The notes: generated by a model not told the origin, from the letters alone. DNA of 64,000 nucleotides from an uncultured Acidobacteriota bacterium (GCA_963756455.1 CAVWNC010000004.1:958397-1022396), one strand, 5' to 3'; counted from the first letter of the stretch, positions 30,708 through 64,000 are shown. Program-made: numbers and translations.

Positions 30708-30716
30708 TGGCCCTCC

Positions 30717-45045: not shown

Positions 45046-46306
45046 AGTGAGGCTTTCCCCCGAGGACGCCATGTTCTGGCGTTTCCACGGTCCGGTCACG
45101 CCGCAGACGATCGCCCTCGTGACCTTCCTCGACGGCGTTCCGGACCTCGATCGCCTGAGAGAGCTCTTCGCGCGGACGATCGTCGCCTATCCGCGCATGC
45201 GGAGCGTCGTTCGGCCGGGCGTCCGGCCAGGAGAGCCGCCGACCCTCGTGCCGCTCCCGAAGATCGACCTCCGCCAGCACGTCGAGGCCCTCACCCTGCC
45301 TGAGACGGCCGGCCGCGCCGACCTTGAAGCGGAGCTCGCCCGCCGCTTCTCGACGCCGCTCCCCATGGACCGGCCGCTCTGGCACCTCCTCCTCGTCGCG
45401 CTCCCGGTGTCGGGAGCCCCGGCGGCGATCCTTTGGCGGATTCACCACCTGGTGGCCGACGGCGTCACGGCCCTCGCCTTCGCGCACGAGATCCTCGGCG
45501 GCGCCGACGAGCGCCGCGGCTCGCCGCCGCCGCCCGCGCTGCCGGCCTCCCGGCCGCGGCCGCGGCTCCTCGCCCTCCTGCGCAGCCTGCGCGCCTGGGG
45601 CCGGCTCGACCGCGGGCCCAGCCCGCTCAACGGGGAGAGCTCGCCGGAACGCCGGTTGACCCCCGTCGACTTGGACCGCGCGACGCTCCGCCGGCTGATG
45701 CGCCGCTTCGACGCCAGCTCACTTGAAGTCCTGCTCAACGTCCTCACCTCCGCCCTGCGGCGCTACCACGAGCATCATGGCGCGCCGGTCGACCGCGACC
45801 TCACCGTCGTGATCCCGTACGCCGATCAACCGCCGTCGCGCGCCCGCTCCCAGGGGAACTTCTTCGGCTCGCGGTTCGTCCGCCTGCCCTTGGGAGAGCC
45901 CGACCCGGGCCGCCGCTTCGACGCTCTCCGGCGCGCCGTCCGGGAGGCGGGAGAGAACGGGGTGGACGAGCTGCTGCGTTTCGTCAGCGGCAAGTTCCAC
46001 CGCCTGCCCCGTGGCTTCCAGCGCGACCACCTGTGGGACTTCGCCCTGCGCTGCAACGCCGCCTGCACCGTGCTGCCCAGCCGGCTGGGCAAGGCGCGGC
46101 TCGACGGGCACGCGATCAGCGCCCACTATGCCGGCGCCGCCCTCCCCTTCTCGCACGGCGCCGCCTTCACCTTCCTCGCAACCGAGAACGCCCTCCGCGG
46201 GATGATCGTCTCCGATCCGGCGATCGTGCCGGACCCCGAAAATCTGCGCGACTTCCTTCTCGCGGGAGTGGAGGAGCTCGCTACTCGGCAGGCTCGCGGG
46301 GCGTGA
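45046..46306 (+). CDS. WS/DGAT-family acyltransferase (wax ester synthase / diacylglycerol acyltransferase-like)
   Basis: MRLSPEDAMFWRFHG (N-terminal LSPxD..F motif) and the catalytic HHLVADGVTA (HHxxxDG). It is the real 3' portion of track ORF 43154..46306. The GTG start at 45046 follows a GGTGGA RBS. Confidence 0.65.
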
Positions 46307-47585: not shown

Positions 47586-50500
47586 TCGACGCTCCCGACG
47601 CTCCCCGAAGCCAGGCCGGCCCGGGGACCGAGGTGGAAGGAGAGCGAGCTCTCGCCGCGATCGATCCGCACGGTCGTCTCTTCAACCAGCGTCGGCCGTA
47701 AGACGGTGGGCGCGGACCCGAGGCCGCCCAAAACGCGGATCTCGACCCGGCTCTCCCCCACCGCAGGACCGCGGTGCGCAGGGATGGTGTAGCGGCCGAT
47801 GTGGATGGGCCCCGAGGCGAGCGGCATCCTCGTCGGATCGCGCGTCAGGTCACGCGTCGGATCGATGGGGAGGAAGGTGATCGTCCCGAAGTCCACGGGC
47901 TTGCCGTCGACGGTGACCTCGCCTTCGACCGCGGCGCGCTCGACGTCGGCGAGGAAGCCCGAGGCACGCAGCCAGTCGTGGAGCCGCTCCTTCCAGGCGG
48001 CGAGCACCGGATCGCCGGCGGCGAGGCCGGCGCCGTGGGCGCCCCAGGGGAAGACATGGAGCTCGGCCGGCACCCGGGCGCGGCGCAGGGCGCCGAAGAA
48101 AGCGAGGCTGTGCTCGACCGCCACCGCCCCGTCCTCGCCGGTGTGGAAGAGGAAGGTCGGCGGCGTGCGCTCGTCGACATGGCGGTCGGCCGACAGGGCG
48201 TCGAGAAGCGCCGGATCCGGATCGTCGCCTAGGAGGCTCCGCCGGGTGACCACGCTGAGCCACTCCATGAGGCTGATCACCGGGTAGGCGAGGACGAGGA
48301 AGTCGGGCCGGCAGCCGTACCGCTCGACGGGGTCCCCGGCGGCCGCATCCCCGTCGTCGTGGCGGGTGGCGAGCGTCGCCGCGAGGTGCCCGCCGGCCGA
48401 AAAGCCCATCACTCCCACTCGGCGGGGCGAGACTCCGAGGTCGGCCGCCCGGCTGCGGACGTAGCGCACGGCGCGCCGCACATCCTCGAAGGGTGCTGGG
48501 TGGCGATAGCGCGGCGCCAGCCGATAGCCGAGGACCACGGCCGTCACCCCGAGCGTCTGGAGCCACTCGGCGACCTGGTGCCCTTCGGTGTCCATGGCGT
48601 GGGCCGAGTATCCCCCACCGGGGCAGACGACGATCGCGGTGCCCGTCGCAAGCTCCGACGCCGGAGTGTAGATGCGGAGGGTCGGCCGGTCCTCCGGCTC
48701 CGAGCCGAGGCTCCCCGGGGCACCCTCGGGCCAGAGGAGGAGGGGGACCGGGCCAATGCCGCCCTGCGTCCCGTCCACCGGCACTCGCGGCAATGGCGGC
48801 TCCGAAGCCTCCAGCTGGCGCTGCCAGAAAGCGCCGCCGGGGCCGGCCGCAACGGCGGCCGGGGTGGCAACCGGAGCGGCAGCCTGGGCGGAGGGCGGCG
48901 AGCCGAGACGGCCGGCGACGTAGGCGGCGAGCGATGCGACGCTCCGGTGGTCGAGGAAAGCCGTCGAGGCGAGCGAGAGCCCCAGAGCCGCCTCCAGCCG
49001 GCGGGTGAGCTCCGTCGCCACCATCGAGTCCATCCCGAGCTCCAGGAAGTCCTGCCGCGGCGCGGGCGGCTCGGGGAGGGCGAGGGCGGCCTGGACCTCA
49101 CGCTCGATCCGGGAGCGGATGAAGGCGAGGCGCTCCTCGGGCGTCGACCCGACCGCGGCCGGGCTCGCCTCCGGAGGCTCCTGCCGCCCGCTCCCGGTCC
49201 CTATCCAATGCCGGCGCCGTTCGAAGGGGTAGGTCGGAAGCTCGACCCGGCGCCGCCGCCAGGGCCGATCCCAGGCTGCGAAGTCGGGGGCGAACCCTTC
49301 CACGAAGAGCCGGGCGACGGCCTGGGCGATCTGCCGATCCGCATCGCCCTCAACATCGCCCTCGTTCAAGCCGGCGATCCGAACCATCCCTTCAGGGAGC
49401 GCGCCGTCCCCGGCGGCGGTCTCGGGACCGACGGTCAGGAGGACGCCACAGCCCGCCTCGATCAGGTCGTCTCCGGAGAGCGCCAGTCGCGCCGGCCCGG
49501 AGGCCCGCTCGCTCCAGGCGGCAAGCTCCGCGACCGACGGCCCCTGGGGGAACTGGGCGACGAGCCGGAATGCTTCCTCGGTGGCGAGCGCCCCCGCCGC
49601 CACCGCCGCCGCGTACTCCCCCACGCCGTCTCCCAGGACGACGTCGGGCTCGAACCCCCAGCTCCGCCAGAGGTCGGCCAGGGCCAGCTCCAGGGCGAGG
49701 AGGGCAGGCCCCGCCGCGAGCGGCGGGCCGCCCGCGAGTTGCTCACAACGCTCCATCTGCTCCTGGAAGACCGGCTGCGATCGGCGGAGCCCCCGGCCGG
49801 CGGCCGCGGGCGAGCCCGCCGCCTCTTGAAGCCCGGGAAAGAGCCAGGCACACCGCGGCCGCGCCGCCCGGCTGCTGCCGAGGGAGAGGCCGGGAACGAT
49901 CTCGCCCCGCGCGAGGCCATGGAGGAGCGCCCCGGCCTCGGCCGCCGACGCCGCGACCACGGCGGCCCGGTGCTCCAGGTGGCTGCGCCCGGTCCCGGCG
50001 GTGAAGGAGACGTCCGGGAGCGAGGCTTCCGGGTGCTCCAGAGGCTCCAGAAGCCGGCGCGCGTAGCGCTCGGCCAGCTCCACCAGGGCCGGCCGGCTCT
50101 TGGCGGAGAGGACCAGGAGGTGGTGGGTCCGCTCCGCGGCCGGTTCCGCCGCTTCTTCCGGCGGGGGCGGGGCGGTCACGACGACGTGGGCGTTGGTGCC
50201 GCTGAAGCCGAAGGCGCTCACCGCCGCGATCCTCTCCTTCCGGGGCCACGGCGCGGCCTCGGCGAGCACCGAGAGGGGGAGGCGCTCCCAGTCGACGTGC
50301 GGGCTCGGGGTCTCGAAGTGCAGGTGCTTCGGGAGCCGCCCCCGCGAGAGGGCGAGCACGACCTTGATCAGCCCGGCGACCCCGGCGGCGGCTTCAAGGT
50401 GGCCGATGTTGGTCTTGACCGACCCCACGAGAAGCGGCCGGCCGGCCTCCCGTCCCTCACCGAAGACCGCCCCGGCCGCCCGTAGCTCGATGGGATCGCC

Positions 50501-53500
50501 CAGGCTCGTGCCGGTGCCGTGGGCCTCCAGGTAATCGACCGCCGCCGGCTCGACGCCGGCCTGTGCCAGGGCCTCGCGGAGGACCCGCTCCTGGGCCGGG
50601 CCGTTGGGCACTGTGAGGCCGCTCGCGGCGCCGTCGTGGTTGACCGCCGAGCCGGGGAGGAGGGCCAGCACGCGGTCGCCGTCGCGCCGGGCGTCGGCCA
50701 GGCGTTTCAGGACGACGACGCCGCAGCCCTCGCCTCGGACGTAGCCGTTGGCGCGGGCGTCGAAGGTCCGGCACCGCCCGTCGGGCGACAGCATGCCGGT
50801 CTTCGACATGTGGATCATGCCGCTCGGGCTGAGGATCGCGTTGACGCCGCCGGCGAGGGCGAGATCGCAGCGGCCGGAGCGCAGGTGGTCGCAGGCCAGG
50901 CTGACCGCCACGAGCGACGAGCTGCAGGCGGTGTCGATCGCCTGGTTCGGTCCCTGGAGCCCCAGGACGTGGCTGATCCGGCCGACCCCGGTGCTGTGCG
51001 CCGTGCCGGTGGCGAAATAGGTGTCCCCCAGGCCATCGCCGCGGGCGAGGAGCTCGCCGTAGTCGCTCGTGCTCAACCCCATGAAAACGCCCGTGCGGCT
51101 GTCCACCAGGCTCGCCGGGGCGATGCCGGCGTGCTCCAGGGCCTCCCAGCTGACTTCGAGGAGCCAACGATGCTGGGGGTCGAGGCTCGCCGCCTCGCGC
51201 GGGCTGATGCCGAAAAACGCCGCATCGAAGCGGTCGGCCTCGCCCAGGAACCCGCCGTCCCGGGTGTACATCTTCCCCGGCGCTTGCGGGTCGGGGTCAT
51301 AGAACGCCTCGCGGTCCCAGCGCTCGGGCGGCACCGGCCCGACGGCGTCCGTCCCGGTCTCCAAGAGCCGCCAGAAGGCGTCGAGGTCGGGTGCCTGGGG
51401 GAAGCGGCAGGCCATGCCGACGAGGGCCACGGGCTCAGCGGTCTCCGTCCCTGCCGACACCGCCGGCCGTGGACTGGACGGACGGACGACCGTCTCCTCT
51501 CCCGCCTCCCCGAGCTGGCCGAGGAGGTGGTCGGCGAGACGATGGACGCTCGGGTAGTCGAAAGCGAGGGTTGAGGGCGGCGGCGGGGCGAGTGCGAGGT
51601 CGCGCTGGACGCGGTTGCGCAGCTCGACCGCCATCAGCGAGTCCATGCCGAGGTCGAAGAAGCCGGCCTCCCCATCCGGCGGGGAGGCGAGCTGCAAGAC
51701 CTCGACGACCTGGCGCTCCAGGTAAGCGCGTAGCTCGTCCTGGCGTCCCTTGGGGGAGACGGCGCGCAAGCGGGCGAGCGACGCGGCTTCGCGGTTCGGG
51801 CGGGTCGGGAGCGCCGGAGGAGGCGGCAGGAGATCCTCGACCAGCGAGGCCGACCGCGCTCCTGCTCGGGCGGCGAAGCGCCGCCAGTCGACCGCCGCCA
51901 CCAGGGCCTGGGGTGGACCGCCGGCGAGCAGGCGGCCGAGAGCGCCGAGGGCCTCGCCGGCCGCGAGGAGCTCGCCGCCCTGGGCACGATAGGCACCGGC
52001 GGCCTGAGGGTGGGAGGCCGCCATCCCTCCGATGCCGGCGATGTCCCAGAGCCCCCAATCGACCGCGAGCGCCGGCAGGCCGAGCCCGCGGCGGTGGTGC
52101 GCGAGAGCATCGAGAAAGGCGTTGGCGGCGGCGTAGTTGGCCTGCCCCGGCGCTCCCAGGACCGACACCGCCGACGAGTAGAGGACGAAGAAGTCGAGCG
52201 GATCTTCCCGCGTCAGAAGGTGGAGAGCCCAGGCGCCGCGGAGCTTGGGCACCAGGACGGCGTCGAAACGCTCGGCGCTCTGCTGGGCGAGGACGCCGTC
52301 GTCGAGGGTGCCGGCGGCGTGGACGACGCCGTGGAGGGGCGCCGACCGCCGCAGCTCGGCGAGGATCTCCGCCAGCCTCGCCTCGTCGGCCACGTCGCCC
52401 AGGAAGCAGCGGACGGCGCAGCCGCCGGCGCGGAGGGCGTCGAGCCTCGCCTCAACCGCGGGGCCGGCCGGCCGGCGCGCCAGGAGAGCGAGGCTCCGCG
52501 CTCCTGCCGCGGCCAGCCACTCGGCCGTCCGGAGGCCCAGCGCCCCGAGCCCGCCGGCGATCAGGTAGGTGCCGTCGGTGCGGAATGCGAAGCGCTCCTC
52601 CCCCTGGGGCATCGGGAGCCGGACGAGCCGGGGCACGTAGCGGTTGCCGCCGCGAAGGACGACCTCCTCCTCAGGGCCGGGGGCAAGGAGCTCCGCAATC
52701 AGGAGATCGACCTCTTCCGCTCCCAGCGGGTCCGCAGTGAGGTCGATCCGCGCGCACCGCGCCGCCGGCCGTTCGAGGGCGATCACCCGCCCGAGCCCCC
52801 AGACGGGCGCCTGGGCCGGGTGGACCGGAGCCTCGCCGTTCCCTTCTCCATTCCCGATATCCTGCACGCCGCGGGTCAGAAGCCAGAGGGGGACGCTCCG
52901 CCACTCCGCCGCCCCCTCGACTGCCCGCGCGAGATGGAGGACGCTCCGGCAGCCCCGCTCCTGGGCGGCGAGGAGCCCGTCGCCGGAGAGCTCGCCCTCG
53001 GGCGTCTCCGCCCAGAGGTGGAGGATGCCGCGGCAGGGCCGGCCGAGCGCCCGGGCCTCTTCCCGCACCTCGTCCAGGAGGCGGGCGTAGCCGGCCTCGT
53101 CCGCGGGGGGGATCGCCGTCTCGCGCGGGCCGGTCCGCGCGTAGGACTCCCCGGGGAGGGCTACGAAGCACACCTCGCCCACGGCCCCAAGCCGGGCGGC
53201 GAGATCGCGCCCCAGGGAGCCGCCGTCGGCAAAGAGGAGCCAGGAGCCCTCCTCCCCGGGGCCCGCCGCCAACAGTGCCGGCTCCGCCGTCTCCGGCCGT
53301 GGGCGAGGCCGCCATTCCAGCCCGTAGAGCGGCAGGCTGTCCTGCCGCTCCGCGTAGGGGACGAGGTTTTCGAGTTGGGCGCGGTTCGCGCGATCGAGCT
53401 CCGCCCAGCGGCTCGCGGGCTCCTTCCTGGCGGTCAAGAGGACGTAGCGCGCGAGGCCCCTCTCCAGCATCCGCCCGAGCTGGTGGTAGGAACGGGCCGA

Positions 53501-56500
53501 CGCGGCGACGTTCCGGTCGACCTCCCGGGCCCCATCGGCGACCTCCGTCGCGTTGCGCTCGAAGTCCTCGTCATGGAGAAAGTTGGCGATCTCCCGGCTG
53601 ATGTCGATCGACTCGGTCAGCCGGAGACGGTGGGTCGAAAGGAGCTGCACCCACTCTTCGCAGGTCGAGAAGAAGGACGAGGTCTCCTCGTGTTCGATGC
53701 CGGTGTCCGAGGTCGAGAGGAAGTCGGCAAGGACGAGGAGGCCGCCGTCGTCCAGATGCCGCTCGATGTTCGCGAAGAGGCGTGCCTTCTCGCGGATGTG
53801 GTGGGCCACCTCGAAGCCGAAGACGAGCTGGTAGCGGGCGGGAAAATCGTCCTCCGCGCTGTTCCGGTGGAAGATCTCGACCCTGGAGGCGAGCCCTTCC
53901 TCGGCCAGCCGGCGGCGACCGAAGGCCGCCTGCTCCCCTGAGAGGGTATAGCCGTGGAGCCGGAGGTGGGAGTGGGCCTGGGCGAGGAGGACGAGGTCGC
54001 TCCCCATCCCGCAGCCGAAGTCCAGGGCGCTCGCGATCTCGGCGAAGGGGACCTTCGCGAAGAGCGCCCGGCGCATCTCCTGCTGCGCCCGGCGCACCAG
54101 GGCGGCCTGCTCCGGATAGCGCTCCGGCTGGCCCATCGCCCGCACCCAGGAGAACCCCGGGACGCGCTGCGGCAGCGGCCCGAAGGTCAGGAAGGGGGCC
54201 TCCGTCCGCCCTTCGAGCCCGCGGAGGAGGGCATCGTAGTAGTCGGCGACGACGGTCCCCGGAGTGGCGTCAGAGCTTCCGGAGCCGCCGGGCGTACCAG
54301 AGGGGACGCGGACCCAGACGCGACGCCGCGCGAAGGGATAGGTGGGGAGGGTGAGCTTGCGGCGCGGCCAGGGCCGGTCCCAGGCGGCGAAGTCGGGGGT
54401 GACGCCGCGGACGTAGAGCCTCGCCACGGCCTCGGCGAGCTGGCGTCCCTCGCTCCGCTCCCGGCGCAGGGAGGGGACCAGCTCCGGCCGCGGCACCGAC
54501 TCCGGCCAGGCGCGGCCGGCCATGCCTGTGAGCACCGCCTGCGGACCGACTTCGAGGAGCACCCCGACGCCTTCCGCGGCGAGGGTGCGGACGCTCTCCC
54601 CGAACTGCACGGGCTCCCGGGCGTGCCGCCGCCAATAGAGAGCTTCCAGAACCTGGCCGGCCGCCGGTGGCCGGCCGGTCAAGTTGGTCACCAGGAGCCG
54701 CTGGGCGGGGCGGAAGTCGACGACGCTCGCAGCGGCTTCGAAAGCGTCGAGGACCGGCTCGACGAGGACGGAGTGGAAGGCGTGAGAGGTGGCCAAGACC
54801 TTGCCGCGCACGCCGCGCTCCGCGAGCCGCGCCACGAGAGCCAGGAGCCTCGCCTGCGGACCGCTCACCACGACGTGGGCGCCGTTGTCGGCGGCCAAGG
54901 CCAGCCCCTCCTCTCGCGCCAGCTCCCGCTCGATCGTCCCGACGTCAGTGAAGAGAGAGGCCATGCCGCCGCCGGCCGGCAGGCTTCCCATGAGCTCGGC
55001 GCGCCGGGCGATCAACGCTAGCCCCTCTTCGAGGGTGAAGACGCCGGCGACGACCGCCGCCGCGTACTCCCCGACGCTGTGGCCCAGGACCACGTCCGGC
55101 TCGACGCCCCAGCTCCGCCAGAGCTCGGCCAGGGCCACCTCGACGGCGAAGAGCGCCGGTTGGGTGTAGCGGGTGTCGTCCAGGAGAGCCGGGGCGCCAT
55201 TGCCTCCCGCCGCGGCGAAGAGCACGTCGAGGAGCGGGCGGTCGAGCTTCCCCCGGAGCCCCTGGGCACAGCGCTCAAGGATATCCCGGAAGACCGGCTG
55301 GGTGCGGTGGAGCTCGCGGGCCATCCCCGGGTACTGGCTGCCCTGTCCGGGGAAGAGCCAGGCGACCTTGGGCCGGCCGCGGACCTGGCCGCGGAAGAGA
55401 CCGGGAGCGCCCTCGCCCACCCGCAGCTGGCCGAGGAGCTCCCGCGCCTCGGCCGCCGAGCCGGCGACGAGGGCCGCCCGCTCTTCCAGGGGGTGGCGCC
55501 CCACCCCGAGGGTGTAGGCGACGTCCGCCAAGTCGGCGGTAGGATGCTCGGCGAGCCAGGCGAGCTGGCGGCCTGCCAGCGCGGGGAGGGCGGCGGCGGC
55601 GCGTCCCGAGAGGGTCCACACGTGCTCGCCGCGCTCGGCCGGTGCGGCGGGCGTTATCGGAGCCTGCGACGGTATCGGAGCTTCGGCCAGCACCACGTGG
55701 GCGTTGGTGCCGGCGAAGCTGAAGGCGCTCACCCCGGCGATCCGCGGACCCGCGGGCCAGGGGACGGGCTCGGCCGCGACCCGCAGCGGCAGCCGCTCCC
55801 AGGGGATGTGGGGATTCGGGCGGACGAAGTGGAGCTGCCGAGGGATGACGGGCTTCTGGAGCGCGAGGACGACCTTGATCAGCCCGGCGATCCCGGCCGC
55901 CGCTTCGAGGTGGCCCAAGTTGGTCTTGACCGCCCCGACGTAGAGCGGCCGGCCAGGCTCCCGGCCGGAGCCGAAGGCGGCGCCGGCGGCTTCCATCTCG
56001 ATCGGATCGCCCAGGCTCGTCCCCGTGCCGTGGGCTTCCAGGTAGGCGACGTCTTTGGGCTCGACCCCGCTCCGCTTCAGAGCCTCGCGGATCACCCGTT
56101 CCTGGGCGCGGCCGTTGGGCACCGTGAGGCCGCTGCTCGCCCCATCCTGGTTGACGGCGCTGCCCCGGACCACCGCGAGCACCGGGTCGCCGTCTCGCTG
56201 CGCGTCCGCCAGGCGCTTGAGGACGACCGCGCCGCACCCTTCGCTCCGCGCATAGCCGTCGGCCGCGGCGTCAAAGGACTTGCAGCGGCCGTCCGGGGCG
56301 AGCATCCGGGCCTTCGAGAAGTTGATCATGGCGAGCGGGGTGAGGACGGCGTTGACGCCGCCCGCGAGCGCCAGGTCGCACTCCCGGGAGAGCAGGCTCC
56401 GGCAGGCGAGGTGCACCGCCACGAGCGACGAGCTGCAGGCGGTATCGATGGCCATATTGGGTCCTTCGAGGCCGAGGAGGTAGCTGATCCGGCCCACCGC

Positions 56501-57091
56501 CGCGCTGTGCGAGATCCCGGTGCCCAGGTAGGCGTCGACCGCCGCCTCCCCCTGCGCGGCGAGGAGCTGGCCGTAGTCGCTGGTGCTCAATCCCATGAAG
56601 ACGCCGGTGCGGCTGCCGAGCCGCGCTCCCGGCGCCTGGCCGGCGGCCTCCAGGGCCTCCCAGCTGATCTCCAGGAGGAGACGGTGCTGGGGATCGAGGC
56701 TTACCGCCTCGCGGGGCGAGATGCCGAAGAACTCAGGGTCGAAGAGATCCATGCGGTCGAGGAAGCCGCCGTAGCGGGTACAGATCTTCCCCGGCGCCTC
56801 GGGATCGGGATCGTAGTAGGCGTCGACGTCCCAGCGGTCCGGCGGCACCTCCCGGATGCCGTCGCGGCCGTCTTCCAGGAGCGCCCAGAAGGACGCGGGA
56901 TCGTCGCAGCCGCCGGGGAAGCGGCAGGCGACGCCGACGATCGCCACCGGCTCGCTGCGCTCCCCGTCGACGGCCGTTTCGAGCTCCCGCACCCGGGCCT
57001 GGAGCTTCTGGATGGCGCGCACGGCGTTGCGCAGCTGGTCCGCGGCGGGGCTTTTGGTGTCAGGCGTGCTGTCGGTCGTGGTGTCGGTCAT
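47582..57091 (-). CDS. Type I PKS 'PKS-B' (about 3170 aa): N-terminal docking, KS, AT(malonyl), cMT, KR, ACP, KS, AT-like(Ser->Gly), ACP, alpha/beta-hydrolase domain, C-terminal tail
   Basis: The true start MTDTTTDST... (ATG 57089-57091) overlaps the PKS-A TGA. The track's upstream 244 codons are an off-gene extension. KS1: EPVAIVGVACRFPGG, DTACSSSLVAVHLA, HGTGT. AT1: GHSVGEYAA with HAFH (malonyl-type). cMT: LDFGCGMGSD. KR: GTYLIAGGLGALG, GQANYAAAN. ACP: LGMDSL. KS2: EPVALVGMACRFP, DTACSSSLVAVSLAC, NIGHLEAAAG. AT-like 2: FPGLQEAAGS and GDGVGEY in place of GQGSQ/GHSxG. ACP2: LGMDSMVATEL. Esterase-like domain and tail: see the separate feature. Confidence 0.9.
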   Translation of the reverse strand: MTDTTTDSTPDTKSPAADQLRNAVRAIQKLQARVRELETAVDGERSEPVAIVGVACRFPGGCDDPASFWALLEDGRDGIREVPPDRWDVDAYYDPDPEAPGKICTRYGGFLDRMDLFDPEFFGISPREAVSLDPQHRLLLEISWEALEAAGQAPGARLGSRTGVFMGLSTSDYGQLLAAQGEAAVDAYLGTGISHSAAVGRISYLLGLEGPNMAIDTACSSSLVAVHLACRSLLSRECDLALAGGVNAVLTPLAMINFSKARMLAPDGRCKSFDAAADGYARSEGCGAVVLKRLADAQRDGDPVLAVVRGSAVNQDGASSGLTVPNGRAQERVIREALKRSGVEPKDVAYLEAHGTGTSLGDPIEMEAAGAAFGSGREPGRPLYVGAVKTNLGHLEAAAGIAGLIKVVLALQKPVIPRQLHFVRPNPHIPWERLPLRVAAEPVPWPAGPRIAGVSAFSFAGTNAHVVLAEAPIPSQAPITPAAPAERGEHVWTLSGRAAAALPALAGRQLAWLAEHPTADLADVAYTLGVGRHPLEERAALVAGSAAEARELLGQLRVGEGAPGLFRGQVRGRPKVAWLFPGQGSQYPGMARELHRTQPVFRDILERCAQGLRGKLDRPLLDVLFAAAGGNGAPALLDDTRYTQPALFAVEVALAELWRSWGVEPDVVLGHSVGEYAAAVVAGVFTLEEGLALIARRAELMGSLPAGGGMASLFTDVGTIERELAREEGLALAADNGAHVVVSGPQARLLALVARLAERGVRGKVLATSHAFHSVLVEPVLDAFEAAASVVDFRPAQRLLVTNLTGRPPAAGQVLEALYWRRHAREPVQFGESVRTLAAEGVGVLLEVGPQAVLTGMAGRAWPESVPRPELVPSLRRERSEGRQLAEAVARLYVRGVTPDFAAWDRPWPRRKLTLPTYPFARRRVWVRVPSGTPGGSGSSDATPGTVVADYYDALLRGLEGRTEAPFLTFGPLPQRVPGFSWVRAMGQPERYPEQAALVRRAQQEMRRALFAKVPFAEIASALDFGCGMGSDLVLLAQAHSHLRLHGYTLSGEQAAFGRRRLAEEGLASRVEIFHRNSAEDDFPARYQLVFGFEVAHHIREKARLFANIERHLDDGGLLVLADFLSTSDTGIEHEETSSFFSTCEEWVQLLSTHRLRLTESIDISREIANFLHDEDFERNATEVADGAREVDRNVAASARSYHQLGRMLERGLARYVLLTARKEPASRWAELDRANRAQLENLVPYAERQDSLPLYGLEWRPRPRPETAEPALLAAGPGEEGSWLLFADGGSLGRDLAARLGAVGEVCFVALPGESYARTGPRETAIPPADEAGYARLLDEVREEARALGRPCRGILHLWAETPEGELSGDGLLAAQERGCRSVLHLARAVEGAAEWRSVPLWLLTRGVQDIGNGEGNGEAPVHPAQAPVWGLGRVIALERPAARCARIDLTADPLGAEEVDLLIAELLAPGPEEEVVLRGGNRYVPRLVRLPMPQGEERFAFRTDGTYLIAGGLGALGLRTAEWLAAAGARSLALLARRPAGPAVEARLDALRAGGCAVRCFLGDVADEARLAEILAELRRSAPLHGVVHAAGTLDDGVLAQQSAERFDAVLVPKLRGAWALHLLTREDPLDFFVLYSSAVSVLGAPGQANYAAANAFLDALAHHRRGLGLPALAVDWGLWDIAGIGGMAASHPQAAGAYRAQGGELLAAGEALGALGRLLAGGPPQALVAAVDWRRFAARAGARSASLVEDLLPPPPALPTRPNREAASLARLRAVSPKGRQDELRAYLERQVVEVLQLASPPDGEAGFFDLGMDSLMAVELRNRVQRDLALAPPPPSTLAFDYPSVHRLADHLLGQLGEAGEETVVRPSSPRPAVSAGTETAEPVALVGMACRFPQAPDLDAFWRLLETGTDAVGPVPPERWDREAFYDPDPQAPGKMYTRDGGFLGEADRFDAAFFGISPREAASLDPQHRWLLEVSWEALEHAGIAPASLVDSRTGVFMGLSTSDYGELLARGDGLGDTYFATGTAHSTGVGRISHVLGLQGPNQAIDTACSSSLVAVSLACDHLRSGRCDLALAGGVNAILSPSGMIHMSKTGMLSPDGRCRTFDARANGYVRGEGCGVVVLKRLADARRDGDRVLALLPGSAVNHDGAASGLTVPNGPAQERVLREALAQAGVEPAAVDYLEAHGTGTSLGDPIELRAAGAVFGEGREAGRPLLVGSVKTNIGHLEAAAGVAGLIKVVLALSRGRLPKHLHFETPSPHVDWERLPLSVLAEAAPWPRKERIAAVSAFGFSGTNAHVVVTAPPPPEEAAEPAAERTHHLLVLSAKSRPALVELAERYARRLLEPLEHPEASLPDVSFTAGTGRSHLEHRAAVVAASAAEAGALLHGLARGEIVPGLSLGSSRAARPRCAWLFPGLQEAAGSPAAAGRGLRRSQPVFQEQMERCEQLAGGPPLAAGPALLALELALADLWRSWGFEPDVVLGDGVGEYAAAVAAGALATEEAFRLVAQFPQGPSVAELAAWSERASGPARLALSGDDLIEAGCGVLLTVGPETAAGDGALPEGMVRIAGLNEGDVEGDADRQIAQAVARLFVEGFAPDFAAWDRPWRRRRVELPTYPFERRRHWIGTGSGRQEPPEASPAAVGSTPEERLAFIRSRIEREVQAALALPEPPAPRQDFLELGMDSMVATELTRRLEAALGLSLASTAFLDHRSVASLAAYVAGRLGSPPSAQAAAPVATPAAVAAGPGGAFWQRQLEASEPPLPRVPVDGTQGGIGPVPLLLWPEGAPGSLGSEPEDRPTLRIYTPASELATGTAIVVCPGGGYSAHAMDTEGHQVAEWLQTLGVTAVVLGYRLAPRYRHPAPFEDVRRAVRYVRSRAADLGVSPRRVGVMGFSAGGHLAATLATRHDDGDAAAGDPVERYGCRPDFLVLAYPVISLMEWLSVVTRRSLLGDDPDPALLDALSADRHVDERTPPTFLFHTGEDGAVAVEHSLAFFGALRRARVPAELHVFPWGAHGAGLAAGDPVLAAWKERLHDWLRASGFLADVERAAVEGEVTVDGKPVDFGTITFLPIDPTRDLTRDPTRMPLASGPIHIGRYTIPAHRGPAVGESRVEIRVLGGLGSAPTVLRPTLVEETTVRIDRGESSLSFHLGPRAGLASGSVGSVE
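48023..48690 (-). other. Terminal alpha/beta-hydrolase (esterase/lipase 'fold-3'-like) domain of PKS-B, followed by a 146-aa C-terminal region of unknown function (47585-48022)
   Basis: TLRIYTP...AIVVCPGGGYS (HGGG-type oxyanion motif, here PGGG), GFSAGGHLAA (GxSxG nucleophile), FLFHTGEDG and HVFPWGAHG (likely acid and His). No GxSxG...GxH canonical PKS TE pattern is present. The tail reads ...VTVDGKPVDFGTITFLPIDPTRDLTRDPTRMPLASGPIHIGRYTIPAHRGPAVGESRVEIRVLGG... Confidence 0.6.
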
Positions 57092-60000
57092 GGTTGGAGA
57101 TCGTCCGGCGAGAGGATCGCGGCGAGCTGGCGGCTCAGGAGGTCCGACAGCTGATCGGCGGAAAGCTCGTCGAGCCCGTCGCTCTCGGACGCCGCGGACG
57201 CCTGGGGGACGGCCTCCGGCACCGACGGCGCGGCGAAACGGGCGGCGGGGATCCCGTCCGGCGCCTCGGGCGCGGCAAGCTCGGGAGTCGAGGGCCGGTC
57301 GTCGAGGCGCTCGACCAGGTGGGCGGCGAGGGCGCGGACGCTCGGGTGGTCGAAAAGCGCCGTCGGCGAGAGCGCGCTCCCCAGCCGGAGCTCCTGGTTG
57401 ATGCGGTTGCGCAGCTCGACCACCATCAGCGAATCCATGCCGAGATCGAAGAGCCCGGCGTCCGGGGCGACCGGCGAGGGGAGGCCGAGGACCCGCATGA
57501 CCTCCTGGCCGAGGTACTCCATCAACAGGGAGAGACGCGCCTCCTCCGGGGCACGCTCCAGCCGGCGGCGGAGCCCCGAGCGCGCCGGCGTGCCGGGGCT
57601 CGCGGATGGGGCGGTCAGGACTTCGGCGAGGAAGGGCGGCACTCCCCTGCCGCCGAGCCTGTCCGCGAAGCGCCGCCAGTCGATCGGCAGGACGCCCACT
57701 TGGGAGCGGCCGCTCGCCAGGGCGCGACCGAGCGCCAGAAGCCCCTGCTCCGGCGCGATCCAGTCGAGACCGAGATCTGAAACCCGCGACTCCGCCCGGA
57801 CGGCGGCGCCGATCCCCGACCACGCTCCCCAGTTGATGCTTAAAGCCGGCAGGCCAGAGGCCCGGCGGTGGCGGGCCAGGAGGTCGAGGAAGGTGTTCGC
57901 CGCCGCGTGGTTCGCCTGCCCGCGATTGCCGAGGAGCGCGGCGGTACTGGAGAAAAGGACGAAGTGGTCGAGCGGGCGACCGGCGGTCAGCCGGTGGAGG
58001 TGCCAGGCCCCCTGCACCTTGGCGGCCAGAACCTCCTCGAAGCGCTGCCAGGTCTGGTTCAGGAGCGCGCCGTCCCGGAGGACTCCGGCCAGATGGAAGA
58101 CGCCGGCGAGCGGCCTGCTGTCCCGCGTCGCGCGCTCCAGCCAGCGGCGCACGTCAGACTCCTGCGAGACGTCTCCGGTGATCACCTCGATATCGATGGT
58201 GCCGGCGGTGTTGGCACCGAGCCGGCGCAGATCGTCCAGGGCCGCTTCGGCCTTGGGGCCGGGCGGCCGGCGGCCGGCAAGGAGCAGGTGACGCGCCCCC
58301 TGGGAGGCGAGCCAGCGGGCGACCGCCAGGCCGAGCCCGCCGAGGCCGCCGGTGAGGAGGAATGTCCCTTCGGGAGAGAAGGCGGGCGGCGCGGGCTCCC
58401 CCAACTCGCACCGCACGAGGCGGGGCACCCGCCAACGTCCGCCCCGCCGGGCGAGCTGGTCCTCACCCTCCGGCCGCAGGAGCTCCGCCGTCAGCGCGTC
58501 CAGAGCTCCCGAGGAGTCCTCGGCAGGGTCGCCGAGCCCCACCGCCTCGAAGTCCACCCGCCGGCAGGCGAGCTCCGGGTGCTCCAGGGCGAGCACCTTG
58601 GCGAGCCCCCAGATCGGCGCCTGGGCGAGGGAGTCGCAGGCCTCCTTAGCCGTCACCTGCGCTCCCCGGGTCACCACCCAGAGCCCTCCCTGGGCCAGCG
58701 CATCCCGACGCGCCAGGGCTACGGCGAGCGCCAGGAGGCTGCCGCAGCCGTGCCGGACATCGGAACTCAGAGTGTCAGCCGACTCGGTAAGGGTCTCGGC
58801 GGTCGGCGCCGCGTCGAGGCTCCACAGGTGGACGACCCCGCGGAGCGGCGGCGCCCCGGCGAACGCCTCGGCGAGGAGGCGCTCCCAGTCCCGCGCGTCC
58901 TCTCCGGGGAGACGGTAGCGATCCTCGCCGGTCCGCGCGTACCCCTTCCCCGGCTCGACGAGCGGCTCGACGAGAATGCAGCGCTGGCCGCGGCGGGCGA
59001 GTCGCTCTGCCAGGGCCGCCCCCACGGACGTCCGGTCCGCCGCGATCAGCCAGGAGCCGGCCGGCTCGGCCGGAGGCCGCCACTCCGGAGCGGCCCGCGC
59101 CACGAGGATCGCCTGGCTGTCCACCCCGGCGGGGGCGATCGCCACCGGTTCCCAATAGCCGGAGGCTTCGAAGGCGCGCGACCACCCCGCGGCGGAGAGG
59201 AGCGGATAGTCCGTCCGCAGCCCGTCGGCGAAACGCCACCAGCCCTCGAGAAGACCGAAGGTGAGATCGAGCCACCCCTGGGGACGGAGGCCCTCGACCA
59301 GAAGCAGCAGCCCGCCCGGCGCGAGCAGCCGGCGCACATGCTCGAGAGCCGCCCCGAGGTCGCGGGTGGCGTGGAGCACGTTGGCGGCGAGGACGAGGTC
59401 GAACGGCCCGGTCTCCCCCTGCTCGGAGGGCGGGCGTTCGAGGTCGAAGGTCCGATAGCGCACGAAGCCGTAGCCGGCGAAGCGCTGCCGCGCGGCGTCG
59501 AAGAAACCGGCCGAGACGTCGGTGTAGAGGTAGTCCACCCGCCCGGCGGGGAGGAGGGGGAGGATCGCCGCGGTCGTGGCGCCGGTGCCGGCGCCGACCT
59601 CCAGGACCCTCAGTCGCCGGCCGGCCGGGAGATCCCGCAAGGCGGCGGTCACGGTCTCCCCGGCCAAGCGGTTGAAGAGCCGAGGGCCGGCGGCCTCGCG
59701 GTAGAGATCCTCGACGCCCGGGCCGTCCGGGGGGAAAAGGAGGGCCAAGGGGTCGGACCGGCCGGTAAGGACGGACGCGAGATCGGCGCCGCAGCGGCCG
59801 AGGAGCGCCAGCTCGACCCGCGCCTCGGGGTAGCTCGCGGCGAGCTCTGCGCGCCGCCGCTCCGGGTCGACCGGCTCCGGGGCTCGCGCGACCTTCCATC
59901 CGTCGGCACGGGCGGCGGCGGGGGCGAGCCAGCCGGCCTCGCCCAGGATGGCGAGGAGGCGCCCCAGGAGCTTGCGATGCGCCGGAGCGATGCCCAGGCG

Positions 60001-63000
60001 AGAAGCCAGCTCCCCGGCCGTGAGCTCCCCGCCCGCGACCGACGCCCAGCCCAGAAGGTCGAGGGCACGCCAGGCGTACTCCTGGGCCAGGCGTTCGAGC
60101 CCGTCGGCGAGCGCCCGGGTGCGCGGGCCGACGCCCTCTTCTTCGGCCAAGGCCTCGGCCGTGGCCAGGAGGGTGGTCGCCAGGTCGCCCGGCGCGGGCC
60201 AGAAGTCGGCCGGCGCGTCCCGTTCTTCGAGATCCCGCCAGACCACCTCGTACATCCATTCGGCGAGAGCGTCGGGCCGCGCCGCGAGGAGGGTCCGGCG
60301 GCTGGCGCGCCGCGCCACGTAGCCGTCGATCCGCCCGCGGAGCCGGCCGTCCTCGCCCAGGAGCCGGAGGTCGGCGGTCAGGGTCTCGGCCTCCCTTCCG
60401 CCCTCCCGCAGCCGGACATGGCAGTAGAAGAGGGCCGGCACCGGCCCGTCGATCTCGATCTCCTGCCAGGCGAACGGCACGTAGGCCCCGGGCTCCCGCA
60501 ACCCAGAGCCGGCAGGCCCGGCGAGCTGAAGACAGGCATCGAGCACCGCGGGATGGATGGGGAAGTCCCCGCGTTCGAGCCCCGGGGGGACGCGGATCTC
60601 CCCCAGCGCCTCGCCCGGCCCCCGCCAGAGCCGGCCCACCCCCTGGAATCGCGGTCCCAGCTCGATGCCCGCGGCGGCGAAGACCGCGTAATCCATCGGC
60701 TCCTCGGACAGCCGGCCGCGAAGCTCGGCGAGGGTCGAGCCGCCGGGATCCGGTGACGCCTGCGGCGCGAGCGCCTCGCGGCGCCCCTCGATGTGGAGCA
60801 TCCAGGCACCGCCCGAGCCATCCAGGGGCCGACTGAAGATCTGGAACGCCCCCCCACCCTCCGCCTCCGGCTTGAGCACCAGCTGGAGCTCCCGCGCCGA
60901 CTCCGGATCGTCGAGTTGGAGCGCGCGCTGGATCAGGCCCTGCGACAGCCGGCACGGGCCGTGGACCGACGCCAGGACCATCGCCAGATGGCTCGCCGCC
61001 GGCACCACAACTGTGCCGAACACCCGGTGGTCGGAGAGCCAGGGCTGCCGGCGGCAGCTCACCTCCTGCGTATAGACCTCCTCCCCCGAGGCCAGATCCT
61101 GCCGCGTCCCCAGGAGCGGATGGGACGGCCCGCTCCCCACCGGCCGGCCCGGACGCCCAGGCTCCAGCCAGTAACGCTGGCGCTGGAAGGGATAGGTCGG
61201 CAGCCGCTCCCGGCGCCGTGGCCAAGGGTGGTCCCACGCCGCGAAGTCGAGAGTCCGGCCGTGGACGTGGAGGATCGCCGCCGCCGCTGCAAGCTGACCG
61301 TCTTCTTCAGCATCGCGGCAAAGCGAAGCCGCGAGGATCGGCGCCGGAACCGCCTCCGGCCAGCTCGCGGCCACCCTCATAGAAAGCACCGGATGGGGTC
61401 CCACCTCCAGGAGCAGCCCGACTCCCAGACGCGCCAAAGTCTCGACGCCCGAGCCCAGCGCCTCCCCCGTCTGGCTCCACACCGACATCCGTTCGACCTC
61501 AGGCCTCCCCGCCACTCCCGCCAATACCCCTTCCTCGAACGGCGTCACCCCCGCCACCACCGCCGCTGTGATCTCCCCCACTCCCTGCCCCGCTACCACT
61601 TCCGGTTCCTGCCCGAACGACCGCCAGAGCGCCGCCAACCCCAGCTCCACCGCCAGGAGCGCTGGACCCGCGGACCGCGCTTCGTCATCGAGGAGAGATT
61701 CCACGCCCAGCAGGCGGCTGCAACGCTCCACCACCTCGCGGAAGACCGGCTGGCTTGAGTAGAGCTCCCGGCCCATCCCCACGTACCCGCTTCCTTCACC
61801 CGGAAACAGCCAGGCCACCTTCGGCTGGGAACGGGAGCTCCCCCGGAACAGGCCTACCGCCGATTCCCCTCGCTCCAGGCAGCCCAGGAGCTCAACGGCC
61901 TCCAACGCCGTGCTCGCCACCAAACCCGCCCGCTCCTCCAGGTGGTTGCGCCCCACGCCCGCCGTATACGCCACGTCCCCCAGATCCGCCTCCGGATGGC
62001 TCAAAAGCCACGAACGATATCTCCCAGCGAGCGCCAACAACGCCTCCGGCTGGCGAGCTGACAGGACCAGGAGGTGAGCCCCCCGCGCCCCGCCCGCGCT
62101 CTCCCAACGGCGGGACGGCGGAGCCTCCTCCACGACCACGTGCGCGTTTGTGCCGCTGAACGCGAACGAGCTCACCCCGGCGACCTTCCGCCCCGCTGGC
62201 CACGGCGTCGCCTCGGACGACACCCGCACCGAGATCTCCTCCCAAGCCATCCGCGGCGACGGCTGACGGAAGTGCAGGTGCGCGGGAATGAGATCCCCCT
62301 CCATCGACAGCACCACTTTGATCAAGCCCGCGATCCCCGCTGCCGTCTCCAGGTGACCCATGTTCGTCTTGACCGAGCCCACGAGGAGCGGCGACCGCCG
62401 CGCCCGACCCGCCCCGAACACCGCCTCCAGGGATCGGATCTCGATCGGATCACCGAGTGCCGTCCCCGTCCCGTGCGCCTCCACATACGAAACCGCCTCC
62501 GGCTCCACCCCGCCCTGCGCCAAAGCCTCCCGGATCACCCGCTCCTGCGACGGACCGTTCGGCACCGTCAAGCCGCTGCTCCGACCGTCCTGGTTGACCG
62601 CCGAGCCGCGGATCAAACCCCAGATCCGGTCCCCGTCCCGCTCGGCGTCGCTCTGACGCTTGAGCACCACGATCCCGCAACCCTCCCCCCGCACGTAGCC
62701 GTCCGCCGCGGCGTCGAACGCCTTGCACCGGCCGTCCGGCGCCATCATCCGCGCTTTTGAGAAGTACACCGTCAGGTCCGGGCTGAGGATCGCGTTGACG
62801 CCACCGGCGAGCGCCACCTCGCAGTCCCCCGAAAGCAGCGCCCGGCAAGCCTGGTTGAGCGCCACCAGAGACGCGCTGCAAGCCGTGTCCACCGCCATGC
62901 ACGGACCCTGGAGGCCGTAGACGAAGCTCAGCCGACCCACCGCCGCGCTCAGCGCGTTGCCCGTCCCCAGGTACTGATCGATCGCCTCGACTCCCTGGGA

Positions 63001-64000
63001 GGAGATGAGACGTCCGTAGTCGGTCGTCGCCATCCCCATGTAGACGCCGGTCCGGGTGCCGAACAGGCGTTGCGGCGGGATGCCGGCGTTTTCGAGCGCT
63101 TCCCAGGTCACCTCCAGGAGCAGCCGCTGCTGCGGGTCGAGGGTCACCGCTTCGCGCGGAGAGATGCTGAAGAACTGCGGGTCGAAGCGGTCGATCCCCT
63201 CCAGGAAGCCGCCGAACCGCGTCGTCATCTTCCCCGGCGCCTCGGGGTCCGGATCGTAGAACGACTCGATGTCCCAGCGCTCCGCCGGCACCTCGCGGAT
63301 CGCGTCCACCCCGTCGCGCAGCAGCCGCCAGTAGCTCTCCACGTCCGGAGCGCCCGGCAGCCGGCAACCCAGACCCACGATCGCCACCGGCTCGTCCAGA
63401 GAGCCCCGGCGCGGCTCACGCGCCAGGGCAGGCTTCGCCGCGAGCCCCAGCAGACGCTCGCTCAAGTGCCCCGCGAGGCTCGTCACCGTCGGATAGTCGA
63501 ACGCCACCGTCGACGCCAGCCGGTACGACGTCCCGAGCTGCGCTTGCAGGCGGTTGACCAGCTCGACCGACAGCATTGAGTCCATCCCCAGGTTGAAGAA
63601 ACCCTCTTCCGGGTCCGGCGGCCCGGGAAGCGCCAGCACCGCCTGCACCTCGCGCTTCAGGTGCTCGGCCATCGCGCCCCGCCGGCCCTCCGGCGAGAGC
63701 GCCGTGAGACGCGCCAGGAGATCCGAGCCGCCCGCTCCCGGCGCACACAGCTCCTGGAGAAGCGACGGAGGCACCGACGACTGATCCCCGTACCGGCGCC
63801 AGTCCGCGCGCAGCACCGCCCCCTGGGCCACCCCGCCGACCACCAGACGTTCGAGCGCGGCGTGCGCCTCCTCCGTCTCCAAGAGGCCCAACCCGCGCGA
63901 CCGCAGGCGCGTCTCCAGGGAACGCTCCGACACCATCCCTCCCGCCGACCACGGCCCCCAGTTGACGCTCGTCGCGGCGAGCCCCTGCCGGCGACGCTCC
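57088..64000 (-). CDS. Type I PKS 'PKS-A', partial (5' end beyond right edge). Visible: ...KR C-terminus, ACP, KS, AT-like(Ser->Gly), DH, cMT, KR(Tyr->His), ACP, C-terminal docking
   Basis: There is no in-frame stop between 63937 and 64000 (minus strand reads ...ATSVNWGPWSAGGM, a KR C-terminal motif), so the gene continues off-window. ACP: FFNLGMDSMLSVEL. KS: EPVAIVGLGCRLPG, DTACSASLVAL, EAHGTGTALGDPIE, KTNMGHLETAAG. AT-like: FPGEGSGYVGMG and GQGVGEI. DH: HRVFGTVVVPAASHLAM. cMT: LEVGAGTGATT. KR: GTFLLTGGLGGLG and GQANHAAAN (cac at 57907-57909, minus strand). ACP: LGMDSLMVVEL. The docking helix DELSADQLSDLLSRQLAAIL ends at TGA 57088-57090. Confidence 0.85.
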   Translation of the reverse strand, partial: ERRRQGLAATSVNWGPWSAGGMVSERSLETRLRSRGLGLLETEEAHAALERLVVGGVAQGAVLRADWRRYGDQSSVPPSLLQELCAPGAGGSDLLARLTALSPEGRRGAMAEHLKREVQAVLALPGPPDPEEGFFNLGMDSMLSVELVNRLQAQLGTSYRLASTVAFDYPTVTSLAGHLSERLLGLAAKPALAREPRRGSLDEPVAIVGLGCRLPGAPDVESYWRLLRDGVDAIREVPAERWDIESFYDPDPEAPGKMTTRFGGFLEGIDRFDPQFFSISPREAVTLDPQQRLLLEVTWEALENAGIPPQRLFGTRTGVYMGMATTDYGRLISSQGVEAIDQYLGTGNALSAAVGRLSFVYGLQGPCMAVDTACSASLVALNQACRALLSGDCEVALAGGVNAILSPDLTVYFSKARMMAPDGRCKAFDAAADGYVRGEGCGIVVLKRQSDAERDGDRIWGLIRGSAVNQDGRSSGLTVPNGPSQERVIREALAQGGVEPEAVSYVEAHGTGTALGDPIEIRSLEAVFGAGRARRSPLLVGSVKTNMGHLETAAGIAGLIKVVLSMEGDLIPAHLHFRQPSPRMAWEEISVRVSSEATPWPAGRKVAGVSSFAFSGTNAHVVVEEAPPSRRWESAGGARGAHLLVLSARQPEALLALAGRYRSWLLSHPEADLGDVAYTAGVGRNHLEERAGLVASTALEAVELLGCLERGESAVGLFRGSSRSQPKVAWLFPGEGSGYVGMGRELYSSQPVFREVVERCSRLLGVESLLDDEARSAGPALLAVELGLAALWRSFGQEPEVVAGQGVGEITAAVVAGVTPFEEGVLAGVAGRPEVERMSVWSQTGEALGSGVETLARLGVGLLLEVGPHPVLSMRVAASWPEAVPAPILAASLCRDAEEDGQLAAAAAILHVHGRTLDFAAWDHPWPRRRERLPTYPFQRQRYWLEPGRPGRPVGSGPSHPLLGTRQDLASGEEVYTQEVSCRRQPWLSDHRVFGTVVVPAASHLAMVLASVHGPCRLSQGLIQRALQLDDPESARELQLVLKPEAEGGGAFQIFSRPLDGSGGAWMLHIEGRREALAPQASPDPGGSTLAELRGRLSEEPMDYAVFAAAGIELGPRFQGVGRLWRGPGEALGEIRVPPGLERGDFPIHPAVLDACLQLAGPAGSGLREPGAYVPFAWQEIEIDGPVPALFYCHVRLREGGREAETLTADLRLLGEDGRLRGRIDGYVARRASRRTLLAARPDALAEWMYEVVWRDLEERDAPADFWPAPGDLATTLLATAEALAEEEGVGPRTRALADGLERLAQEYAWRALDLLGWASVAGGELTAGELASRLGIAPAHRKLLGRLLAILGEAGWLAPAAARADGWKVARAPEPVDPERRRAELAASYPEARVELALLGRCGADLASVLTGRSDPLALLFPPDGPGVEDLYREAAGPRLFNRLAGETVTAALRDLPAGRRLRVLEVGAGTGATTAAILPLLPAGRVDYLYTDVSAGFFDAARQRFAGYGFVRYRTFDLERPPSEQGETGPFDLVLAANVLHATRDLGAALEHVRRLLAPGGLLLLVEGLRPQGWLDLTFGLLEGWWRFADGLRTDYPLLSAAGWSRAFEASGYWEPVAIAPAGVDSQAILVARAAPEWRPPAEPAGSWLIAADRTSVGAALAERLARRGQRCILVEPLVEPGKGYARTGEDRYRLPGEDARDWERLLAEAFAGAPPLRGVVHLWSLDAAPTAETLTESADTLSSDVRHGCGSLLALAVALARRDALAQGGLWVVTRGAQVTAKEACDSLAQAPIWGLAKVLALEHPELACRRVDFEAVGLGDPAEDSSGALDALTAELLRPEGEDQLARRGGRWRVPRLVRCELGEPAPPAFSPEGTFLLTGGLGGLGLAVARWLASQGARHLLLAGRRPPGPKAEAALDDLRRLGANTAGTIDIEVITGDVSQESDVRRWLERATRDSRPLAGVFHLAGVLRDGALLNQTWQRFEEVLAAKVQGAWHLHRLTAGRPLDHFVLFSSTAALLGNRGQANHAAANTFLDLLARHRRASGLPALSINWGAWSGIGAAVRAESRVSDLGLDWIAPEQGLLALGRALASGRSQVGVLPIDWRRFADRLGGRGVPPFLAEVLTAPSASPGTPARSGLRRRLERAPEEARLSLLMEYLGQEVMRVLGLPSPVAPDAGLFDLGMDSLMVVELRNRINQELRLGSALSPTALFDHPSVRALAAHLVERLDDRPSTPELAAPEAPDGIPAARFAAPSVPEAVPQASAASESDGLDELSADQLSDLLSRQLAAILSPDDLQP

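Follow-up and report, generated by a model that had tools for sequence, protein, structure and literature searches.

Organisation of the PKS-A and PKS-B locus

The window (the whole stretch of DNA that was analysed, 64 kb in length) has a G+C content of 71% and carries on its minus strand two translationally coupled type I PKS genes, namely, PKS-A and PKS-B. Homologues of the ABC1 kinase encoded in the same genome are no more than 52% identical to it, and the few that bear a name come from Acidobacteriota-type MAGs, which gives a weak hint as to taxonomy. The PKS-A frame has a coding-type GC3 of 0.88, and its N-terminal part in the window consists of the tail of an upstream ketoreductase (KR) and an ACP, followed by one full module in the order KS, AT remnant, DH, cMT, KR, ACP and docking tail. 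PKS-B is arranged as KS-AT-MT-KR-ACP-KS-AT remnant-ACP-BD-FAE/abhydrolase_3 hydrolase. The genes and the domains of the PKS-A module were located as follows:

57088-63999, minus strand: PKS-A, open frame of 2303 aa that runs past the right edge of the window
47582..57091, minus strand: PKS-B, 3169 aa, with its ATG at 57091 and its stop at 47582
57088-57090, minus strand: stop codon of PKS-A, overlapping the PKS-B ATG at 57091
62269..63393, minus strand: KS of the PKS-A module (Pfam ketoacyl-synt N and C), with Cys at 62878-62880 and both His motifs kept
61504..61812, minus strand: AT remnant of the PKS-A module (Pfam Acyl_transf_1), with GQGVGE at 61573-61590
60292..61122, minus strand: DH of the PKS-A module (Pfam PKS_DH_N and PS-DH), with intact HxxxGxxxxP at 61000-61029 and DxxxQ at 60526-60540
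59155..59625, minus strand: cMT of the PKS-A module (Pfam Methyltransf_12/25/23/11)
57775..58962, minus strand: KR of the PKS-A module, complete with structural and catalytic subdomains (Pfam PF08659, E 7.6e-66)
57316..57516, minus strand: ACP of the PKS-A module (Pfam PP-binding), with Ser at 57430-57432 and a C-terminal docking tail after it

The cMT has the SAM motif LEVGAGTG at 59581-59604 and NVLHAT, with its His, at 59365-59382. These Pfam matches bear out the original prediction in that the KR shares its module with a DH and a cMT.

AT remnant in the PKS-A module

The AT of the PKS-A module matches Pfam Acyl_transf_1 at profile positions 2-117 of 319 only, and approximately the first third of the domain is left. 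Compared with the intact AT of PKS-B, this domain reads GQGVGE instead of GHSxG, thereby losing the catalytic Ser, and has an internal deletion of approximately 115 aa that includes the small subdomain and the HAFH region. This vestigial AT was absent from the original prediction. The last module of PKS-B carries an AT remnant with the same deletion (GDGVGE at 49616-49633), and remnants of the same kind lie at the C-terminus of hundreds of single-module PKSs of approximately 3400 aa in the GTDB loci. This recurrence suggests that the AT was retained as a structural remnant in a module that is loaded in trans, rather than being left by random decay. As the AT remnant of the PKS-A module lacks the Ser, malonylation of the ACP in this module would have to occur in trans; no discrete AT was found among the other genes of the window. 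A skipped or non-elongating module is a minority possibility.

A histidine in place of the catalytic Tyr in the PKS-A KR

Two residues distinguish the KR of the PKS-A module from Tyr-type KRs, and they are encoded at the following positions:

57907..57909, minus strand: codon CAC of His2031, which occupies the catalytic-Tyr column of this KR
57805..57807, minus strand: lid residue Ala2065 in W-S-G-I-G-A-A (WSGIGAAV), where Tyr-type KRs usually have Met

His2031 is residue 2031 of the 2303-aa frame and stands in GQANHAAAN, within GNRGQANHAAANTF. The original prediction had placed NHAAAN at the catalytic-Tyr column, and this placement was confirmed by the sequence and by alignments to solved KRs and to the PKS-B KR. 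In the HMMER alignments to solved KRs, His2031 falls on the Tyr of the Lsd14 KR ('glgnYapgn') and also on that of the MAS (mycocerosic acid synthase) KR ('gqgaYaaan'). A three-way alignment equates it with the His of HMWP1 and with the Tyr of the PKS-B KR (GQANYAAAN, codon 52133-52135), a residue that was rightly described as kept in PKS-B. The 200-aa catalytic subdomain of the PKS-A KR contains no Tyr at all; thus, a neighbouring Tyr cannot substitute for His2031, and the possibility that the catalytic Tyr is a different nearby residue falls away.

The other catalytic residues of the KR are kept, namely, Lys1994 (58018-58020), Ser2018 (57946-57948) and Asn2035 (57895-57897), the first two of which had been recognised beforehand. 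Ser2018 sits 13 residues before His2031, and a spacing of 13 residues between the Ser and the catalytic residue is the SDR rule. The NADPH motif TGGLGGLG is located at 58330-58353. Every invariant column of the His-KR family alignment, including K1994, S2018 and N2035, is kept in the PKS-A KR. The domain has the features of a modular type I PKS KR ('complex' SDR), namely, PF08659, a two-subdomain fold, the NADPH motif and Lys/Ser/Asn, with the catalytic Tyr as the exception. It also has the features of a His-type KR, namely, His in G-Q-x-N/A-H-A-x-A, a non-Met lid and a cMT in the module.

The B-type fingerprint, which is associated with D-beta-hydroxy products, comprises an LDD-type motif with a conserved last Asp and the absence of Trp from the position eight residues ahead of the catalytic one. 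The PKS-A KR has an LRD motif at 58072-58080 and Leu, not Trp, eight residues before His2031, and is by its sequence a B-type KR on both counts.

The AF2 model of the PKS-A KR, built from 43 sequences, is a confident canonical KR (pLDDT 91.6, pTM 0.93). Foldseek searches with this model gave TM values of approximately 0.78-0.80 to the Lsd14, AmpKR2 and EryKR1 KRs, and 3qp9 was also among the matches. The three PDB alignments inspected contained no solved His-KR structure.

Distribution of His-type KRs

The 120 best relatives in a 5.8-billion-protein database were aligned, and the catalytic column held His in 39 and Tyr in 80; this His fraction is biased upward because the word-based prefilter of the search favours the query's own motif. 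A less biased sample was obtained by scanning 1.84 billion cluster representatives in full with HMMER; the best 150 proteins were full-length multimodular PKSs. These 150 PKSs contained 439 KRs, with Tyr in 405 (92%), His in 22 (5%) and other residues in 12. A GTDB scan (one genome per species) with the patterns Q[AG]NHAAAN and ITGGL[GR]GLGL yielded at least 563 confirmed His-KR loci. The hosts among the GTDB matches listed include Dehalococcoidia/SAR202 (Chloroflexota), Gamma- and Alphaproteobacteria, Acidimicrobiia (Actinomycetota), Acidobacteriota, Latescibacterota, Binatia, cyanobacteria and one Streptomyces.

Over the fetched GTDB loci, the His column is encoded by CAC in 53 cases and by CAT in 32, and the use of both codons indicates that the amino acid itself is being maintained. 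His2031 is neither a chance nor a private residue, because His recurs with both codons in hundreds of homologues. An origin of the His as a frozen single mutation was also considered and rejected, given that CAC and CAT are both used and that Tyr and His flip between KRs that are 96% identical.

The six nearest relatives of the PKS-A KR among those compared all carry His, at 60-68% identity over the catalytic subdomain. In an NJ tree, the PKS-A KR is placed inside an all-His clade of seven, the sister of which is a large clade that comprises 71 His-KRs, 5 Tyr-KRs and 1 KR with Gln. Parsimony on this rough tree gave approximately 28 switches between His and Tyr, a count that is indicative only. 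No orthologue of the PKS-A KR was found in the 5.8-billion-protein database (top identity 45-51% over the full KR), among the GTDB representative matches listed (top identity 61%) or in metagenome contigs (top identity 37%).

A 2020 review states that the active-site Tyr of KRs is "sometimes replaced by histidine" and cites Keatinge-Clay 2012 as the primary source of this remark (PMC7327777). A full-text literature search for Tyr-to-His KRs returned nothing beyond this single sentence. As judged from these comparisons, the His variant is a widespread and conserved KR type that crosses phyla and is neither private nor recent, and the PKS-A KR belongs to this known but little-documented variant.

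Module context of His-type KRs

The domains in 80 fetched GTDB loci were called by phmmer, using the window's own domains and an ER from a database match as queries. Sixty of the complete His-KRs in these loci lie in KS-AT-DH-cMT-ER-KR-ACP modules, 10 in DH-cMT-KR modules and 2 in DH-ER-KR modules; the remainder occur in cMT-ER, cMT, ER or plain contexts, some of them cut by contig ends. DH and ER act only on the product of a KR; hence, the occurrence of His-KRs in conserved reductive loops speaks in favour of their activity.

The KRs L080 and L077, which come from different MAGs, share 95.7% identity and differ at the catalytic column, one having Tyr and the other His; both stand in DH-cMT-KR modules. 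Since KRs this similar, from the same module type, differ at that column, the comparison suggests that His and Tyr are functionally interchangeable in this scaffold.

Covariation with the lid residue and the cMT

The lid residue is the position after W-G-x-W-x-x-x-G. It is Ala in 35 of 40 His-KRs, whereas Tyr-KRs have Met, Phe or Leu. The less biased sample of 439 KRs gave a lid Met in 256 of approximately 330 parsable Tyr-KRs and in none of the 22 His-KRs, which have Ala (11), Glu (4), Ser (3) or Val (1), the rest being unparsed. The Tyr-KR of PKS-B has a Met-type lid.

A module whose KR has His at the catalytic column also tends to contain a cMT. In the less biased sample, modules with a cMT held 13 His-KRs and 4 Tyr-KRs, and modules without a cMT held 9 His-KRs and 401 Tyr-KRs (odds ratio 145, Fisher p 5e-16, from counts that ignore shared ancestry). 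The KRs of neighbouring modules, which lie outside the selection by the search patterns, show the same tendency, with 10 His and 3 Tyr beside a cMT and 0 His and 9 Tyr elsewhere; the cMT-KR fragments in the database comprise 9 with His and 1 with Tyr. The PKS-B KR follows a different MT yet carries Tyr, and the link between His and cMT is therefore not absolute. Inheritance of the cMT-KR block as one cassette may underlie the association.

Comparison with known KRs

The PKS-A KR was compared with four groups of known systems. The single-module PKSs of approximately 3400 aa (KS-AT-DH-cMT-ER-KR-ACP-KS-AT remnant), which were found in marine and sponge-type MAGs, share with PKS-A the GQANHAAAN motif, the cMT, the DH and, following a KS, the same kind of AT remnant; their KRs are sister to the PKS-A clade in the NJ tree. 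Unlike PKS-A, they have an ER, Glu at the lid (WSEIGEA) instead of Ala, and LS or LA in place of LRD, and their KRs are 54-61% identical to the PKS-A KR. Their architecture is probably similar to that of the published 'Sup' sponge PKS.

HMWP1 (irp1), the PKS/NRPS of yersiniabactin in Yersinia and E. coli, also has His at the catalytic-Tyr column (GQSAHALAC), a lid without Met (WGAWGESGRAA), and the NADPH motif, Lys and Ser, and its KR lies in a module with a cMT (KS-AT-cMT-KR-ACP, followed by further domains). In E. coli Nissle 1917, irp1 is intact (HMWP1, WP_000369530.1) and its KR contains LYSSAAATLGAPGQSAHALAC, the His of which aligns to His2031. The chromosomal irp1 of E. coli CFT073 carries a frameshift and is a pseudogene; no enterobacterial match was obtained when plasmids were searched by tblastn for a plasmid-borne irp1. 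The yersiniabactin assembly line has a single KR, that of HMWP1, and purified YbtE, HMWP1, HMWP2 and YbtU have been used to produce yersiniabactin in vitro. HMWP1 differs from PKS-A in having no DH in the module, an intact AT and LAD rather than LRD. It is a distant precedent, because its KR is only 33.5% identical to the PKS-A KR over the catalytic subdomain and has Cys where the PKS-A KR keeps Asn.

Canonical B1-type KRs (for example, TylKR1 and the PKS-B KR) share with the PKS-A KR the two-subdomain fold, an LDD-type motif, Lys/Ser/Asn, a DH partner, a Gln three residues before the catalytic residue and no Pro after it; they differ in having Tyr and usually a lid Met, whereas the PKS-A KR has His and Ala. 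C-type KRs (such as PikKR3 and EryKR3) share the common KR fold with the PKS-A KR, and each lacks at least one canonical catalytic feature. C-type KRs are without Asn (C2) or without Ser and Tyr (C1) (PMC7327777). In contrast, the PKS-A KR keeps all but the Tyr, with Asn, Ser and the NADPH motif present, which sets it outside the C type, and its family occurs in reducing modules.

Proposed function of the PKS-A KR and alternative explanations

On the comparative evidence, the PKS-A KR is probably a catalytically competent, B-type, NADPH-dependent beta-ketoreductase that uses His2031 as the general acid in place of Tyr, a reading for which we have good confidence and in which the close relatives compared are all at most 68% identical. 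In the proposed mechanism, the imidazolium of His2031 would donate a proton to the beta-keto oxygen and NADPH would give the hydride, with Ser2018, Lys1994 and Asn2035 in their usual roles. The KS, DH, cMT, KR and ACP motifs are intact, and the module is accordingly read as a coherent reductive unit, of which the DH-cMT-KR set is most likely functional. After condensation, the cMT would methylate the alpha carbon, the His-KR would reduce the beta-keto group to give a predicted D-beta-hydroxy intermediate, and the intact DH would dehydrate this intermediate to a putative 2-methyl-2-enoyl thioester, the module product. The original prediction had offered an alternative proton donor as one of its readings, and this reading gains comparative support from the conserved His-KRs in reducing modules with DH or ER and from HMWP1 in a reconstituted pathway.

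The KR could instead be a reductase-incompetent, C-type domain kept for structure or epimerisation, in which case an alpha-methyl-beta-keto intermediate would be delivered and the DH would be idle. Modules that combine a cMT with an inactive KR are known, for example, those for gem-dimethyl beta-keto units, and the canonical Tyr is indeed missing here. Tyr-to-Phe mutants lose KR activity (PMC7327777). However, C-type KRs typically lose the NADPH site, Asn or Ser, and the PKS-A KR keeps TGGLGGLG, Lys, Ser and Asn in a canonical AF2 model. Modules with DH and ER strongly conserve this His motif, HMWP1 carries His and works in the reconstituted yersiniabactin line, and the catalytic motifs of the adjoining DH are intact. 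A redox-inactive or epimerising KR, which the original prediction had also entertained, is thus considered improbable. The concern that the DH would be left without a substrate rests on the premise that the KR cannot reduce, which the evidence does not support.

A further explanation is that the whole PKS-A module is decaying or skipped, so that the residue at the Tyr column would be without functional meaning. It draws on the AT, which has lost its catalytic Ser (GQGVGE), approximately 115 aa and the small subdomain, and on the lack of a discrete AT among the window's other genes. Against it, the 2303-aa frame is open with a GC3 of 0.88, the KS has kept its Cys and His motifs, the motifs of DH, cMT, KR and ACP are likewise intact, and the same AT remnant recurs in the second module of PKS-B and in the single-module PKSs of approximately 3400 aa, leaving decay or skipping only a slim chance. 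The last explanation is that the CAC codon reflects an error in sequencing or assembly, or else a private TAC-to-CAC mutation of very recent date; a single transition separates the His and Tyr codons. Nevertheless, chance would have to strike the very column that defines the subfamily that the domain already fits. Both the co-varying lid, which is of the His type (Ala2065 instead of Met), and the six nearest relatives, which without exception carry His, speak against a base-call error, and an error or private mutation is on these grounds extremely improbable. The suggestion of a recent inactivating mutation fares no better, in view of the all-His relatives at 60-68% identity, the use of both codons in the family and the co-varying lid.

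Annotation rules that need the Ser/Tyr/Asn triad would call the PKS-A KR inactive, and with it approximately 5% of all KRs in the sample of related PKSs. If the PKS-A KR reduces by means of His2031, such triad-based calls would mispredict a beta-keto position where a reduced one (here dehydrated) is expected.

The combination of His, a lost lid Met and the link with cMT is strong and apparently little documented, and provides a lead on the coordination of methylation and reduction; this covariation is the only part of the finding that might repay more work. It is conceivable, but on balance doubtful, that His-KRs are a mechanistically distinct class that co-evolved with cMTs, in which His and the loss of the lid Met reshaped the active site, and that His is not a neutral substitute for Tyr. 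If so, the active site would fit alpha-methyl or gem-dimethyl beta-ketoacyl-ACPs, or reduction would wait until methylation is complete; the presence of His in the sequence would then mark the order in which a PKS module methylates and reduces, and the class would include the PKS-A KR, with its DH-cMT-KR module and remnant AT.

Substitutions at the catalytic column of homologous ketoreductases

The ketoreductase (KR) domains of two homologous PKS loci from other genomes (L080, 10001-10540, and L077, 10001-10540) were 95.7% identical and carried Tyr and His, respectively, at the catalytic column, and both belonged to modules of the DH-cMT-KR type. Gln occupied this column in the KR of a further homologous locus (L029, 3524), where the Ser motif was also degraded, and this domain is probably a dead copy.

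The KR of HMWP1, the yersiniabactin synthetase encoded by irp1, reads GQSAHALAC, in which His stands in place of the Tyr and Cys in place of the Asn. The irp1 region was found in 2266 of 5426 complete Escherichia coli genomes. The copies considered were the following:
L086, 936-10427: irp1 of E. coli Nissle 1917
L085, 34034-43521: irp1 of CFT073, annotated as frameshifted

A His-type KR with the lid WSEIGEA was also present in a single-protein PKS of ~3400 aa, which was detected in dozens of MAGs across a wide range of phyla (loci L003-L076; for example, L008 3254-13675 and L017 3188-13666), many of them seemingly marine or sponge-associated. The domain order was KS-AT-DH-cMT-ER-KR-ACP-KS-AT remnant, with a post-AT linker forming the C-terminal end, an architecture that may resemble that of the sponge 'Sup' PKS.

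AT remnants and other features of the PKS region

Truncated AT remnants lacking the Ser were located in both PKS-A and PKS-B, and an internal deletion of ~115 aa was common to them:
61504-61812: AT remnant of PKS-A, GQGVGE in place of GHSxG
around 49616-49633: AT remnant of PKS-B module 2, GDGVGE in place of GHSxG
Unless their ACPs are loaded in trans, these two modules do not elongate.

Three further features belong to the PKS region:
63937-63999, minus strand: tail of the KR upstream of the PKS-A module, the rest lying off the window
47585-48694: BD-FAE/abhydrolase_3-type hydrolase at the C-terminal end of PKS-B
46281-47585, minus strand: luciferase-like monooxygenase gene
The upstream KR has a Met-type lid (WGPWSAGGM) and is therefore probably a Tyr-type domain. 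PKS-B terminates in the hydrolase, with a GFSAGG motif, instead of a canonical PKS thioesterase, and the ~150 residues that follow had no Pfam match. The monooxygenase gene probably belongs to the PKS-B operon, since its ATG overlaps the PKS-B stop codon (ATGA).

Other genes and base composition of the window

The remaining genes comprised the following:
3-22526, minus strand: multimodular NRPS, a single open frame of >7508 codons running past the left edge (matches: eight condensation, eight AMP-binding and six PP-binding)
22438-27576, plus strand: two tandem MacB/FtsX-type permease genes
35017-38403, minus strand: class II lanthipeptide synthetase LanM (DUF4135 and LANC_like)
40588-45023, plus strand: two tandem, overlapping ABC1/UbiB-family kinase genes

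The G+C content decreased to 60-66% at 28000-34500 and 38500-40500, compared with 71-75% elsewhere, and the ORFs of these stretches did not pass the GC3 filter or were without a Pfam match (27598-29016, 39184-40077). The second ABC1/UbiB-family kinase was the sole protein of the window with a 100% identity match in the public collection.
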